Below are positions 42,564-51,607 of a stretch of 64,000 bases of DNA, piece by piece (positions within the stretch are counted from its first letter, which is position 1; the number at the start of each line of letters is the position of its first letter). This stretch comes from Myxococcota bacterium (GTDB lineage Bacteria > UBA10199 > JACPAL01 > GCA-016699445): the NCBI GenBank assembly GCA_052033505.1, contig JBPOJN010000014.1:5599-69598 (forward strand), in the 5' to 3' direction. Position numbers and translations under genes: made by a program. The notes beneath the pieces are model-generated. The model worked only from the letters and a program-made list of their open reading frames with translations, did not search any database and was not told the DNA's origin.

Positions 42564-45500
42564 TCATCTGAAGGGCGAAATCCTCGGGGAACTACATGAC
42601 CGCTGGTGACTAGAGGGGTGAGTGCTCTCCCCCCCCCCAAAAGGTGGTGGGAGCTTTGCTCGCGGACGCGCTGAGGTAGTCCCGCTGGGTAGGAGATTGG
42701 GGAGTTGATTGAGAAGTGTGCTTAAGGGTTCGAGAAAAGTATGATGTGTCTGATTTTGTCCATCTTCGGCCAGGATATTCAGAAGTATGTCCAAAAAAGA
42801 CTCTTTGTATAAAGTGAGGTTGTTGATTTCCGACATGGCTTGAGTGTTCTCTGGAGTAATGTCGCCTGTTTGATCGGGATATTTTGAGAGAGAGGCTCTG
42901 TTGCGAAACTCTGCTTTGAAGGCCTCGACTAAAATATTAGTTTTTTCCACTAGTGATCTTCTTGCACGCGCGAGGGCCGCATCATTCTGAGATTCCAGTT
43001 TCTGTTTCTGTTCTGTAGATTGTTCGTTGATGGACTTAGCTAATCGAGCTAGTTCTTTTTGTGCCGCAGCGATGGCAACGACTTTTTCGAAAAGAATGTT
43101 TCTCCAAACATCGAGCCATTCTTGACCTGGTTTAGCTGACGATATTCTAGTCACCGGACCCGTATCGATACCCAGGCCGGGCATAGGTTCAGGCAATGGA
43201 GTGGGTTCGTCCGGGGTGGCAGAAGGTTTCCTACCCGGAGGAGGTGGTGGTGATTTCTTTTGAGTTAAAATTGCTGCTCTGTAGGCTTCCGTGTCGGCGT
43301 CGGACATTTGTGTGAGTTGAAGGCTGTGATCACTTGTTATGACGACCTGAATGCCGACTTCTCCCAGTAGGATACGATCCTGCTTCTCAGTTAAGGGTTG
43401 CAGACCTTTTCCGAGTTTCACTTCTCTCCAGTAGACTTGTTCGCTGTCGCCGTTTCTTCTGAAAGACCATTGGCGCTTCGTCATATCGTAGGTAAAGATG
43501 ACGTGATTTGGGACGATGGAACGATGATCGATTTGTTCGCGACCAAAAATGATGGCCATGTCCTCCGTAGAGTAGGACCACGACGTCGGCACTTCGGTTT
43601 GTAGTTCGATGTCGTCGATCTCGAGGACATCACCTGAGAGTGCTACGGCAGGAGCTGCCACCTGACCGCTTATGTGAATGACCCCAACGGATGTGTCGTC
43701 GCCAACGGCTAAATGGGCAAGAGAGTCTAAGATGCCACTGACTAAAACTGTTTCAGAGAGACTAAAGCTGCGCAATACATCTGCCAGGCCTGACAAGCCC
43801 CGTGCTCCGGTGTCTACGATATTTTGTGTTTCTCTAAATTGTGCCACGATCCGATCCAATGCCTCTACATTTGACTCTGCTGCCGTCGCCATAGCGGTTA
43901 TTTGATCTTCATGGGTTTTTGCCAAGTCATCCAGCATCGTTCGATGCGCATCGGACATTTCTCGGATCTTAGCATTCAGTCGTTCCTCATCTTTCATGTC
44001 GTTTGCTGCGAGGGCTGCTTGATGTTCGGCGGCGAGGCCCTGAATGGCGGCTTCATGCTCTGCTCCAAGCCGCGCACGTTCCGCGCTCAACTGTGCTTCC
44101 GCTTCGGCTTTGAGTGCATCGACGGCCTGACGGTGAAGTGCTGCTTGTTCAGCAATGGATCGCTCTTTCACGGTCGCTAAATTTTCCTTTTCAGATGCAA
44201 AACGTGTTTGGTCTTCGGCTCTCTTTGCTTTGGTCTCTTCGAGAAGCTCCGCTGTTTTTGTCAGAGCGGATTGCGCCGCATGAAGTTGGCCTTCGAGAAT
44301 TCTTATTTTTTCCTCAACAGCTTGTTTGTCGGTGATTGCTGCTGCCGCTAATGTCTTTTGCCGATCAAGCTCAGCTCTGAGAGCCTCGATCCCTTCTTTT
44401 TTGAAGTGCAAGGTACGCGCACGAATCCCACAGAGGAGAGGAATGCGGTCCATGAGAGCGGGGGGCGGATTTTCGGTGGTGAAGTATTCCCGTATGGCTG
44501 CGGCGATGTCATCGCCATCTTTCATCGAGAACCCTTCTATCACTTGAGCAAGATTTTCTTCGGATACTGTTTGAGAGACCGCTTGTGACAAATCCCAGAA
44601 ACGGGTTTGGGAGTCCTCACCAAAAAAATGGCTTCCGTATACCTGGAATTCATTTTCAAAAACCAAACTGAGAAGTTTGAGGCAGGTCGTTGGGTCTTCG
44701 GGATAATTTAAGAAAGCATCCTGACTAAGTAAGTAACCATCAATTTGGTCAGCAAGAGATTGGAATCCATGCTCCCTGATTAAGTCTGAAAACTCTCGGA
44801 GGGATCTCGTTTTTAACAAATCTTCCGTTGCGGGAGAAGGAGCTATGAACTTTGATTTGGTCATGAGATCCTGTGCAGAAGGCAATCCAAGGATGGACTC
44901 ACCTCCTGAAAGGACTTTGTTTTGGCGGTCTACGTGAGTTGCTAGTGCCTCCAAAAAATTGGGTCCAAGACGCGTGTGATGCCGTCTGGATTGATAAAGA
45001 GGGCGTAATCTTTGGATGGAAGGGTTATTCCACTTTTCCATCCTCTGAATCATATCGTCGATTTGTTTGTGAATTGCCGTATCCCAGTCAGGGAACGTGA
45101 TTATTTGATCACCTTGGATCTCATAGCGAACAGGAGAGGCATGCTTCTCCCAGCTCTCCGCCAAGCCTGAAAGTTCATCATTTTTTTGAACAGCTGCGTT
45201 CGCCATACTCGGGTAAAGAGCAACCAATCGGTCTGTGATAGCCTCCTGTGGGTTCTTAACCGTCCAATAAAGTTTGCGACTCAGCGGGTTTTGGAGCTGG
45301 GCCAAGAGCTGTTCGATGCCGGCGCTGAGTGTTTTGTAAAATTCTGCTTTTTTATATTTTGAGACTTCGTCTGTACCAAAAGTGCGTAGCGCGTGATCGA
45401 TGAGGGACTCGGGGATGAGTCCATTTTCTACAGGGAATCCCTGTTTTGCCCAAATGTCGTAGATTTTTGAAATCAGGACTTTGCCGAAATCGCCAAATGG

Positions 45501-49621: not shown

Positions 49622-51607
49622 TTACCTGCCTAAAGTCGGAACCTTACCTCTTCCACTACCACCACCTCTGACCGCACCCTTCTGAACAAACGTATGCGGC
49701 ATCGCTCTGACTTTCACGCCTTCGACGGCACCTGCATCGTTCGTCGGTTGGACGTAGACGGCCAGTTCATTCTTCGATTTGGTGCTGAATCCGTTGACTT
49801 GAGTCACGGCGACATCGAAGAAGTTCTCACCCTTTTTCAAGGTCAGAGCCTGCTTGTATTTCTCGCCGATCATCGTCGCCAAAGCCTTCGTATCCTTGTC
49901 GCTGACCACACGTACGCGGATGGTTTCGCCGTTACGATAGTACTGACCCTTCTTCGGCGTCGAAATGACCGCCGCTTCCGTCAGCGTCGCGATGGCAGGC
50001 GCCACCGTGTAGCTCGGCCAATCCAAGGTCGCGATTTCGGCGCCTTTGACGGTTTTGAAGACCAACTGGACTTTTTCCTTCGTGCCCGGGGTCGCGTAAT
50101 CTCTCGCGACCCAATTGTTACCGATGTTATCAAAGCCCGGCATCACGATGGAGTAAGCTTCGTTGCCCTTCAGCGGCGTCGTGTCTTCGTAGACCGTCTT
50201 GTCGCCGACGCGCACGCTGACCGTTACGCCCGCGGGGATGTTCTTCACGGGGGTGAAACTGCCGAGGTTCACGTTGTACTTCTCGTCGGACTTCGTGATC
50301 TTCGCCACACCCGCGGCCGGGGCCGTGGGGAGGTTCACTTGTTTGTTCGGGTTCACACCGGAGAGCAGGCTCGTGCCGATGATGTTACCGGCGTCGTCGA
50401 TACCGGCTTTCAAAGGGCCGACCAGGATCGTGACGTCGCGGTGATGTTTCTTGCCGTCGATGCCGTCATTGTAGTTCACGCCCAGGGTATGTTTGCCGGG
50501 TTCAAGTTCGAGGGTGGCCGGCAGTGTTTGCTCGGGGCCGCCATCGATGCTGATGCCGGTGATCACGTCGCTGGGCTTCAGGCCGGCGAGTTCACGGACT
50601 TTCGCTTCGTCCAGGGTGATGGTCGTCTTGCCCGCTTCGTTCAATTCAGGCGTGAGTTCGACGGTAGACGCATCGACGGTTTCATCGATGAGAACGCCTT
50701 CTGCGTTTGCTTTGCCGATTTTTTTCAACGATCCGCCGCCGCTGCTGCCGCCGAAAGAGACGCTGGCGCCGACGAGGACGTCGACGCTGGCCCACGTGCC
50801 GCCGCTGCCTTTGTTCGGGTTCGCGCTGTTCAGGGTCGGGATCACGGTGCCCGTCAGGCCGACGGTCGTTGAGCCGACCGGGAATTCATAACCAGCGCTG
50901 ATCGGTAGTCCTACGGTCAACAAGGCACCGCCCTGTCCTGCACGGGCCGAGCCGGTGTCGTCGTTTTTCAGTCCCGAAAGACCGGTGTTGCTGCGGCTGC
51001 CGTCGAGAAGAGTTTCATAGGTGTTTTCGCCCGTCTTCAAAGCGCCCGCACTGGCGCGCACACCGGCGCCGACCGTGAGCTGAGGAAGTTTTTTAGGGCT
51101 CCACAAACCGCCGACGGTGACATCCACGCCGAAGGCCGAGAAAGAAGAAGAAACGTCTTCGCCGCCCGGGGTCAGGAAGTTAAGTTTGCCGGAGCGATAA
51201 TTCGCGCCGATGCCGCCAGTCACGAAGAAGTCACCCTGAACATTTTTTTGAGCATTGACGCCGATGCGGGCGGTCGCGCCTTTATGTCCGTAATCACCGC
51301 TGCCCTGGCTGTAACCGCCTTCGGCGACCGCATTAAAGGACCGATCCGCACGTGCATAAATAGCCGTTTCCTTGGGGGCTTCGGAAGCCGGGGCCGCTTC
51401 CGGTTGGGAAGTTTTGCCGTTGATGATAGCCATGAGAGCGGCCTGATCAAACGTCTCACCGGATTCCGTAGTGACCGTGGCTTTTTCATCAGGGCGGCTG
51501 ATAGAAGCGAGGGCTGCTTCTTCCGGAGTGTCGATGGTTCCTTCTCCTTCGACTACACCTTTTGTTTCTTCGCCCGTCGAGCTTTTATACGTAACGTTGA
51601 TACCCAT
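49622..51607 (-). CDS. hypothetical protein (661 aa), Gly/Ser/Thr-rich beta-strand N-terminal region and probable Ig-like C-terminal domains
   Basis: No signal peptide. Residues 90-290 alternate small and hydrophobic residues (GVDVTVGGLW, ALLTVGLPISAGYEF), suggesting beta-rich architecture. The C-terminal part has several ~90-aa segments with beta-sandwich-like patterns. First gene of the operon, after a 250-bp divergent promoter region. Confidence 0.5.
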   Translation of the reverse strand: MGINVTYKSSTGEETKGVVEGEGTIDTPEEAALASISRPDEKATVTTESGETFDQAALMAIINGKTSQPEAAPASEAPKETAIYARADRSFNAVAEGGYSQGSGDYGHKGATARIGVNAQKNVQGDFFVTGGIGANYRSGKLNFLTPGGEDVSSSFSAFGVDVTVGGLWSPKKLPQLTVGAGVRASAGALKTGENTYETLLDGSRSNTGLSGLKNDDTGSARAGQGGALLTVGLPISAGYEFPVGSTTVGLTGTVIPTLNSANPNKGSGGTWASVDVLVGASVSFGGSSGGGSLKKIGKANAEGVLIDETVDASTVELTPELNEAGKTTITLDEAKVRELAGLKPSDVITGISIDGGPEQTLPATLELEPGKHTLGVNYNDGIDGKKHHRDVTILVGPLKAGIDDAGNIIGTSLLSGVNPNKQVNLPTAPAAGVAKITKSDEKYNVNLGSFTPVKNIPAGVTVSVRVGDKTVYEDTTPLKGNEAYSIVMPGFDNIGNNWVARDYATPGTKEKVQLVFKTVKGAEIATLDWPSYTVAPAIATLTEAAVISTPKKGQYYRNGETIRVRVVSDKDTKALATMIGEKYKQALTLKKGENFFDVAVTQVNGFSTKSKNELAVYVQPTNDAGAVEGVKVRAMPHTFVQKGAVRGGGSGRGKVPTLGR

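Follow-up and report, generated by a model that had tools for sequence, protein, structure and literature searches.

Which system do four long genes without a recognized family form, and do they belong to the chromosome that carries them? The question arises at positions 42564–51607 of a 64,000-nucleotide stretch of contig JBPOJN010000014.1 (assembly GCA_052033505.1), hereafter the window, where four minus-strand genes lie back-to-back with the gene of a large surface adhesin. The four genes represent a local, reduced form of a fast-diverging, lineage-specific cluster present in a small group of uncultured Myxococcota-like bacteria. As to what that cluster does, our tentative choice—plausible rather than probable—is a membrane-anchored scaffold or signalling assembly that works with the adjacent adhesin. 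The genes, and the region between them and the adhesin gene, are as follows.

49622–51607, minus strand: gene 1, family A; open reading frame (ORF) of 661 aa with an AGGAGG ribosome-binding site
48574–49581, minus strand: gene 2, family B, predicted bitopic membrane protein; ORF of 335 aa with a GGAG ribosome-binding site
45819–48518, minus strand: gene 3, family C, putative scaffold protein; longest ORF 899 aa, likely start ATG at 48467, giving 882 aa (P0001)
42564–45791, minus strand: gene 4; longest ORF 1075 aa, likely start ATG at 45764, giving 1066 aa (P0004)
51608–51860, no strand: intergenic region of 253 bp from which gene 1 and the TSP3 adhesin gene diverge

A preliminary description of this DNA, made from the letters alone, had listed four minus-strand ORFs of 661, 335, 899, and 1075 aa, gaps of 27–55 bp, and a divergent region of ~250 bp at 51608–51860; sizes and positions are borne out. 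The gaps are those of the longest ORFs (40, 55, and 27 bp from gene 1 to gene 4) and become 40, 106, and 54 bp with the likelier ATG starts at 48467 and 45764, which agree with the NCBI gene calls (882 and 1066 aa) and have better-fitting upstream sequence than the longest-ORF starts. Proteins are named below by longest-ORF length. Clear Shine–Dalgarno sites precede the 661- and 335-aa genes, and all four reading frames are intact over 335–1075 codons. A promoter scan of 51608–51860 found nothing promoter-like above chance, the three gaps between the genes hold no minus-strand terminator-like site (the terminator scan overall being at chance level), and an Rfam search in and around the operon returned no family.

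Direct searches with the four full proteins gave nothing meaningful in Pfam, NCBIfam, PADLOC, PHROGs, or PDB sequences. Pfam searches of isolated segments at E ≤ 10 likewise gave nothing meaningful, the only hits being Cut8 and Cadherin-like noise, and among the PADLOC defence models the best match to any of the four was ZorA at E 0.064, on the coiled coil, the result being otherwise empty. PDB sequence searches were also empty with profiles of family A, of the family C head, and of the repeat module described below. Word-index searches of 5.8 billion proteins with the 899-, 1075-, and 661-aa queries recovered only the queries themselves; the 90%-identity clusters of the 661-, 335-, and 899-aa proteins are singletons, and identical 661- and 335-aa genes occur on an independent read-assembly contig (L001, run ERR14173714).

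Remote relatives emerged from an exhaustive HMMER search run on the 882-aa form of the 899-aa protein, which found ten further proteins in a few metagenome-assembled genomes of uncultured bacteria. Four of them, P0005–P0008, are 1327–1426 aa long and 26–30% identical to the 882-aa protein (E 1e-29 to 1e-42), with a fragment, P0009, in addition; P0011 and P0012 are homologues of ~850 aa. Three Big_2/LRR proteins (P0010, P0013, and P0014) were rejected as relatives, their match being repeat-driven and confined to one small beta domain, the barrel region. In metagenomes, a scan based on the head-domain alignment matched 183 patterns, of which none was a relative.

The loci that encode these homologues share an arrangement with the window. 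In L082 (GCA_035454885.1) an opposite-strand gene for a 1547-aa TSP3-repeat protein is followed by genes for proteins of 649, 560, and 1356 aa (the last being P0005) and then by at least seven genes without a Pfam match. L085 (GCA_036274695.1) repeats this layout but has families A and B in duplicate, and L084 (GCA_021772655.1) repeats it with a more divergent family C. The order divergent TSP3 gene, A, B, C is thus common to the window, L082, L084, and L085. Full-length family A homologues found with phmmer comprise a 649-aa protein in L082 (E 4e-27), proteins of 654, 428, and 277 aa in L085, and one of 691 aa in L084, at 25–28% identity; family B homologues are proteins of 542 aa in L085 (E 1e-7), 560 aa in L082 (E 7e-7), and 631 aa in L085.

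An all-against-all comparison resolves the cluster proteins into six families: A (661-like), B (335-like), C (899-like), and the further families D–F, which often stand in tandem paralogue arrays. L085 comes from assembly DASUFF01, as does L002, whose transketolase is the closest to the window's in a species-representative genome collection (77% identity). Between the same two genomes the cluster proteins are only 25–30% identical, a gap that shows their fast divergence. Such divergence fits recognition, effector, or conflict roles alike and does not decide between them.

Whether the genes were recently acquired was judged from this arrangement and from composition. The window averages 54.3% GC and its housekeeping genes 55–60%, with GC at third codon positions (GC3) of 0.62–0.77 in the latter; GC3 of the 661-aa gene is host-like at 0.69. 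The three distal genes (335, 899, and 1075 aa) have 49.6–53.0% GC and GC3 of 0.47–0.52. The preliminary description had called these three AT-richer than a ~60% background: They are indeed lower, but the background is not that high, and several unrelated window genes have an equally low GC3 of 0.49–0.54. GC3 therefore steps from 0.69 (49622–51607) to 0.47–0.52 (42564–49581) inside one operon, despite its ancestral gene order; the step may stem from relaxed selection, or from a relative of lower GC having supplied the genes by homologous replacement.

The preliminary description went on to suggest a horizontally acquired system, that is, a recent foreign island—the block or its distal three genes—arriving with the neighbouring IS30 element and toxin–antitoxin (TA) genes. 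The GC3 of the distal genes, below that of the 661-aa gene and of housekeeping genes, favours such an island, as do the adjoining IS30, PIN toxin gene, and gene remnant, the restriction of the 1075-aa protein to this genome, and, for the distal genes, the possibility of homologous replacement just named. The gene order is nevertheless kept in three relatives' loci, that of the nearest relative's assembly included, and the cluster genes of L082 and L085 are of uniform GC (0.64–0.70), a pattern named beforehand as refuting foreign origin. From this shared order and uniform composition we conclude that genes 1–3 and the divergent adhesin gene are an inherited arrangement of the lineage.

Other observations agree. 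Native-looking window genes have equally low GC3; a search of the whole window found no tRNA; and around the four-gene block there is neither an integrase gene nor a significant flanking direct repeat, IS30 being the only mobile gene. Searches of plasmids (tblastn) with the 1075- and 899-aa proteins gave no match, nor did PHROGs phage families with the four proteins at E ≤ 0.01, and the repeat module common to the 1075-aa protein and its neighbour fits a local origin. A foreign island is largely refuted for the block as a whole, and we hold this reading, the distal genes included, to be very unlikely.

That module is found in several of the cluster proteins. BLASTP aligns residues 58–173 of the 1075-aa protein with residues 386–502 of the 899-aa protein (33% identity, E 7e-6), and an iterated hidden Markov model (HMM) seeded with one copy converged on 34 instances of an all-helical unit of ~93 residues with the consensus IxxELxxRYPxF...IYxxW...IPExF...DRGPRxxR. 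There are three copies in the 899-aa protein (one is partial), a single partial copy in the 1075-aa protein, and four to seven in each of P0005–P0008. The window copies are these.

47010–47288, minus strand: helical module copy 1, ~93 aa, residues 411–503 of the 899-aa ORF (module HMM domain E 2.5e-12)
46593–46817, minus strand: module copy 2, N-terminal half only, residues 568–642 (module HMM E 7.5e-8)
46302–46577, minus strand: module copy 3, complete and ending GDRGPRAKR, residues 648–739 (E 4.7e-28; AlphaFold2 predicted local distance difference test, pLDDT, 80–93)
45309–45542, minus strand: partial module of the 1075-aa protein, residues ~84–161 (module HMM E 1.2e-6; hhalign probability 70%, E 4e-5)

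Five adjacent proteins of L084 end in the module as their C-terminal domain and differ in their heads: One combines an FHA domain with an Sm-like barrel and a transglutaminase-like domain, one is an AAA ATPase, and the rest are anchored by transmembrane (TM) helices. Copies are most alike between adjacent genes. The module matches nothing in Pfam or, as a profile, in the PDB; it is a previously undescribed domain, and its distribution suggests that it most likely serves as a homotypic adaptor. The AAA protein of L084 (13996–17364; 1122 aa, Pfam E 6e-5, with a C-terminal module) is the sole enzyme-like nucleoside triphosphatase (NTPase) in any cluster.

A published class of domains resembles the module. 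Effector-associated domains (EADs), small helical domains without enzymatic activity, stand at the ends of various proteins from adjacent genes and are most alike between neighbours; a role as homotypic coupling adaptors has been proposed for them (Kaur, Burroughs, Iyer and Aravind 2020, PMC7159879). Our module is likewise small, non-enzymatic, all-helical, and terminal, with adjacent copies most alike. It differs in having no match to a Pfam EAD, in standing in tandem up to seven times per protein, and in belonging to clusters with bitopic proteins and an adhesin gene at their core.

The likeness raises the possibility of a biological-conflict (immune-like) system, in which the module, as an EAD, would couple effectors or signalling proteins to a core NTPase homotypically. 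Besides the three published EAD features that the module's distribution fits, this would suit the AAA ATPase, FHA, and active-looking transglutaminase-like peptidase that carry the module in L084, the fast evolution, and the TA genes nearby; such systems are reported to be enriched in multicellular bacteria, myxobacteria included. Yet no member has a vWA, MoxR, VMAP, STAND, or GAP1 domain or a known EAD, and no EAD core (vWA-MoxR-VMAP, iSTAND, or GAP1 GTPase) carries the module in the window or the related loci, the nearest thing being the one AAA protein of L084 (E 6e-5). None of the four window proteins contains an NTPase, a Walker A motif being absent, or has an intact peptidase triad; PADLOC, as noted, was empty, which leaves the defence system proposed earlier without support; and a conserved adhesin neighbour with many bitopic membrane proteins is foreign to such systems. 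We consider a conflict system quite improbable.

The single-sequence AlphaFold2 model of the 899-aa protein is poor (pLDDT 43), the barrel excepted; with an eight-sequence alignment the P0001 model reaches pLDDT ~80 for residues 70–330 and 80–93 for residues 540–720. The domains outside the module copies are listed here.

48078–48260, minus strand: Sm/Hfq-like (SH3-like) small beta-barrel, P0001 residues ~70–130
47463–48050, minus strand: transglutaminase-like (papain-like) core, P0001 residues ~140–335, probably non-catalytic
45831–46223, minus strand: C-terminal tandem duplication of a ~62-aa helical unit, residues 766–827 and 835–896 (local alignment score 112)

In fold comparison the P0001 model scored highest with a transglutaminase-like protein (S. 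pyogenes TglA, PDB 9crn; 8.8 over 166 aligned residues), followed by TG3 and TG2 (7.3–7.5), LapG (7.3), protein 4.2 (7.2), an arylamine N-acyltransferase (7.0), and 3isr (6.6); residues ~70–130 matched Hfq proteins at 7.7–8.3. Foldseek placed the same families on top, without significance. The core has the alpha+beta fold of the superfamily, with the nucleophile position at a helix start packed on a beta-sheet. As modelled, the 899-aa protein has a head made of an Sm-like barrel followed by a transglutaminase-like domain. The internal helical duplication reported earlier in this protein is also real (766–827 vs. 835–896); an HMM of the ~62-aa unit finds just these two copies, which makes the unit specific to this genome.

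Catalytic residues separate the homologues. In P0011 and P0012 a Cys, a His, and an Asp stand as far apart as expected of the transglutaminase-like/papain-like superfamily (LapG, TglA, protein 4.2), the two proteins reading GVCNERG ... RHAW ... LILDP in alignment A3, and both carry a classical FHA domain (E 4e-6 and 4e-9). The triad is intact in these two FHA-bearing proteins only: The 899-aa protein has Thr in the Cys column, Thr in the His column (with a His one residue earlier), and Cys in the Asp column, and P0005–P0008 likewise lack the triad Cys and Asp. Judged by these substitutions, the transglutaminase-like domain of the 899-aa protein is probably catalytically inactive. Erythrocyte protein 4.2, an inactive member of the fold that serves as a membrane-skeleton scaffold, provides a parallel. 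Unlike LapG, TglA, and protein 4.2, the 899-aa protein fuses the domain, with its Cys-to-Thr and Asp-to-Cys replacements, to an Sm-like barrel and helical modules. The barrel, for its part, differs from Sm/Hfq proteins in lacking the Sm sequence motif and any Pfam LSM or Hfq match and in forming one part of a large protein with several domains. Binding of peptides or proteins, as by SH3- or Tudor-like barrels, is a likelier role for it than that of an RNA chaperone.

The interdomain linkers of P0005–P0008 (e.g., L087:2481–6761 and L082:10001–14071) repeat Pro-rich acidic motifs: LPPPPDDEE, PPPPDDFDDRPT, and DDDDNRPT. These resemble ligand motifs of the EVH1 or SH3 type. An N-terminal 'MGxxxT' myristoylation signal was considered and rejected, as it is not kept among homologues.

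The 335-aa protein begins with an N-terminal domain of 240 aa that contains two conserved Cys; a TM helix, a basic cluster, and a short Pro/Ala tail come after it. The preliminary description had likewise called it a single-pass membrane protein with a Pro/Ala-rich tail, and it held correctly that none of the four proteins has a signal peptide.

48787–48855, minus strand: Gly-rich TM helix of the 335-aa protein, residues 243–265, called from hydropathy and flanking charge and followed by RAWGRRGMK

By the positive-inside rule, RAWGRRGMK directly after the helix would place the C-terminus inside and the N-terminus outside. The pattern recurs in every family B member and across families: The most hydrophobic segment of B, C, and D proteins is rich in Gly and has two to five Arg/Lys right after it and few before, and in B and D all Cys lie N-terminal of the helix. 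On these sequence rules the 335-aa family looks N-out/C-in without a signal peptide, and the module-bearing parts of family C would be cytoplasmic, which fits the FHA and AAA domains; FHA domains in homologues also point to cytoplasmic phospho-Thr-dependent interaction. Many family B, D, and E N-termini have Cys at position 3–6 (MPCLK, MTVCRD, MSGxQCxDFGG), with a second Cys 8–14 residues on in D and E; one example lies at window 49567–49581, and others begin at L082:14219, 15363, and 22072 and at L085:14426 and 16383. These early Cys residues may form disulfide loops or mark a site of processing or lipidation.

The 661-aa protein has a conserved N-terminal domain of ~60 aa, a Gly-rich middle, and a beta-rich C-terminal half, without signal peptide or TM helix; a family A profile found nothing in the PDB. 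Its beta-rich character had been noticed earlier, and the Ig-like modules then proposed went unverified, with a Cadherin-like match at E 0.26. No counterpart of the 1075-aa protein turned up anywhere, except via the shared module, and HMMs of families D, E, and F do not match it. Its ~200-aa helical stretch, recognized by composition, and its poly-Pro (PPPPP at 848–852, within SPPPPPGRK at 847–855) answer to the coiled coil and poly-Pro linker of the preliminary description. Two further candidates in this protein failed: An FHA domain in the beta region ~740–830 had no Pfam FHA match at E ≤ 10 on the isolated segment, and a likeness to the C-terminal repeat of the 899-aa protein scored 37, which is not significant.

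43812–44399, minus strand: Pro/Gly-poor helical stretch of the 1075-aa protein, putative coiled coil, residues ~465–660, A/E/K/Q/L/R-rich, called from composition only

Proteins that lack signal peptides and diverge quickly could also be a battery of secreted or injected effectors or toxins whose export route is encoded elsewhere, aimed at prey, competitors, or a host, with Gly-zipper TM helices entering target membranes. Signal peptides are indeed missing from every family except the adhesin, the 899- and 1075-aa proteins start with Ser/Thr/Pro-rich stretches that contain no acidic residue, and the TM helices are Gly-rich; the extreme divergence (25–30% where transketolase keeps 77% in the same genome pair), the tandem paralogue arrays of relatives, and the Pro-rich acidic linker motifs of homologues would all be at home in such a battery. 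Secretion-system genes, however, are absent from the window and the related loci, Pfam detects no toxin, immunity, or delivery domain (PAAR, Rhs, LXG, MIX, etc.), and the genes keep a stable order, unlike cassettes. With their FHA and AAA domains and positive-inside pattern, the cluster proteins look like residents of the inner membrane or cytoplasm. On balance we regard an effector battery, and with it the effector-like candidate of the preliminary description, as unlikely though conceivable.

The divergent neighbour is the gene of a surface protein.

51861–55313, plus strand: TSP3-repeat surface protein, conserved divergent neighbour, 1150 aa (Pfam TSP_3 E 2e-182; NCBIfam MtsC 637 bits)

The MtsC model has 428 positions against the 1150 aa of this protein, and repeats inflate the 637-bit score. 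A signal-peptide-like segment probably starts from Met27. The tail, ...GGAGGCSL...AAAVLGLLMSLPMMAVRFFRK, has the layout Cys motif (GGCSL), TM helix, basic end (RFFRK); the dedicated MYXO-CTERM NCBIfam model is not among the protein's reported matches, and we call the tail MYXO-CTERM-like from reading its sequence. MYXO-CTERM is a tripartite tag reported across Myxococcota on cell-surface adhesins, among which MstC (the paper's name for the protein to which the NCBIfam MtsC model refers) has been implicated in cell–cell cohesion, social motility, and development (PMC11980579). The likeness to the myxosortase-sorted adhesins MtsC and TraA (PMC11980579) belongs to this neighbour at 51861–55313, not to the four genes, and the known partner genes of MtsC/TraA resemble none of families A to C.

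MYXO-CTERM-like ends (GGCSL or GGCQL, a TM helix, and an Arg/Lys-rich end) occur on TSP3 proteins at window 51861–55313 and 56232–58316 (plus strand) and at L082:1203–5846, which is why we call the host Myxococcota-like. Window positions 11181–18594 encode myxo_disulf_rpt, CSLREA, and choice-of-anchor Q domains, which fit such a host. The host is probably a poorly sampled Myxococcota-like lineage, and poor sampling would explain part of the genes' orphan look.

Because the cluster stands back-to-back with a large Ca-binding TSP3/MYXO-CTERM-type adhesin gene, its most likely role is tied to the adhesin, and the parts described above can be assembled into the scaffold or signalling reading as follows. 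Bitopic proteins such as the 335-aa one would expose a Cys-bearing N-terminal domain outside the cytoplasm. A large cytoplasmic scaffold of the 899-aa type, with its Sm-like barrel, dead and probably peptide-binding transglutaminase-like domain, and helical modules, would belong to the same assembly, and the ~93-aa module would couple cluster proteins as a homotypic adaptor. The 1075-aa coiled-coil protein may dock to the same network via its partial module, and the 661-aa beta-rich protein would be a conserved partner. The assembly would serve an adhesin-tied envelope process: anchoring, sensing, or regulating cell-surface adhesion or recognition.

A more specific form of this idea, improbable as we now see it, is an envelope-spanning adhesion or recognition apparatus of a previously unknown kind, with signal-less N-out bitopic receptors, the module as adaptor in their cytoplasmic tails, the pseudo-transglutaminase scaffold, FHA/AAA regulators in some lineages, and the MYXO-CTERM Ca-binding adhesin. 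If it were true, the apparatus would be a bacterial counterpart of adhesion-receptor/adaptor complexes, and fast diversification would be as expected for self/non-self recognition in social bacteria. The adhesive apparatus floated in the preliminary description gains indirect support from the conserved adhesin neighbour; its contractile candidate has no support, Pfam and PHROGs giving no sheath, tube, baseplate, or phage-family match.

An adhesin-linked transglutaminase-like fold also calls LapG to mind, whose target is a giant Ca-binding adhesin as the conserved neighbour here is the gene of one. Unlike periplasmic LapG, the 899-aa protein has neither a signal peptide nor the catalytic Cys. 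A LapD-like partner is likewise missing: Cluster proteins contain no GGDEF, EAL, or HAMP domain, and Rfam finds no cyclic di-GMP riboswitch. A LapG/LapD-type adhesin-release system was accordingly rejected, adhesin adjacency being the only feature in common.

Several points weigh against a scaffold or signalling assembly. The adhesin link is adjacency in only four loci, and the 661- and 1075-aa proteins yield zero functional clue. The P0001 structure model is only moderate (mean pLDDT 66 from the eight-sequence alignment), and a transglutaminase profile match is found neither in Pfam (E ≤ 10, isolated domain and homologues) nor in the PDB (A3 profile). It is unusual for bacteria to export an N-terminal domain of 240 aa that no signal peptide precedes, and for this reason the topology assigned here may be wrong. 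The window version, moreover, lacks parts: The 899-aa protein is without its homologues' N-terminal TM helix and ~300 residues, the 335-aa protein without the ~250-residue cytoplasmic tail domain of its 542–631-aa homologues, and no member of families D, E, or F occurs anywhere in the window, as searches of its six-frame translation with their HMMs showed.

These losses would equally suit a decaying remnant with little or no function, truncated by rearrangement near IS30 and under relaxed selection. The low distal GC3 and the adjoining IS30, TA genes, and transketolase remnant can be read the same way as the two proteins far shorter than their homologues and the absent families. Against decay stand four intact frames of 335–1075 codons, good ribosome-binding sites on the first two genes, retention of the module and domain cores, and 661- and 335-aa genes that are identical in the independent read assembly (L001). 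We judge a remnant unlikely.

The flanking DNA on the distal side completes the picture. The preliminary description had placed an IS30, two TA modules, and a gene remnant there. The IS30 is a complete element, the remnant is the 3' end of a transketolase gene, and of the two TA modules a PIN toxin gene is present, domain support being limited to one module.

41377–41402 and 42414–42439: 26-nt inverted repeats of a complete, self-contained IS30-type element
40333–40449, plus strand: transketolase 3' end, last 39 codons

The transketolase remnant lies 360 bp downstream of a gene for a 1008-aa amidase-domain protein (36950–39976, plus strand) and shares 77% identity, at both the protein and the DNA level, with the 3' end (36690–36812) of the intact transketolase gene at 34980–36812. 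The 1008-aa gene is thus flanked by an intact and a displaced transketolase end, the pattern expected of an insertion into a 3' end that brings its own replacement end; the remnant brackets this gene, not the four-gene operon. Its product has a Ser/Gly/Pro-rich N-terminus and no signal peptide. As a cluster member it was rejected, the sole match being a 54-residue hydrophobic segment: Residues 292–343 align with residues 222–272 of a family E protein (L084:19258–21036) at 39% identity (E 2e-5), too short for homology.

TA pairs, PIN-type and others, lie in or right after homologous clusters at L085:15444–16159 and at L086:4611–5296 and 6663–7204, and in the window at 40476–41181. Since TA genes stand beside homologous clusters in L085 and L086, they are a recurrent trait of the neighbourhood and not the sign of an island; IS30 and TA genes are neighbours, not cluster members. 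As a practical correction, compositional dips beside insertion sequences and TA genes do not mark foreign DNA here.

The feature is real, and its families and system have no described counterpart. Of the preliminary claims, that of an undescribed locus held, the searches having put the four proteins in no described family or system, and that of no sequence-based clue proved too strong, given the remote homologues, the module repeated between proteins, and the assigned fold. No Pfam entry covers the co-clustered families, at least six in number (A to F), or the one repeated domain, and the window members of A–C are also empty in NCBIfam, PADLOC, and PHROGs. The cluster is known so far from about half a dozen assemblies, a narrow distribution that limits how much the finding can weigh at present. 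Within it, the cluster order is conserved in several uncultured Myxococcota-like genomes, beside an adhesin of the class that governs myxobacterial cell–cell cohesion. The module would amount to a new domain for delivery or coupling should the genes turn out to form an effector battery or a conflict system. If the module is homotypic and the receptors are N-out, the cluster would represent a new membrane signalling/adhesion architecture and a handle on how surface adhesins are coupled to the cytoplasm in social bacteria.

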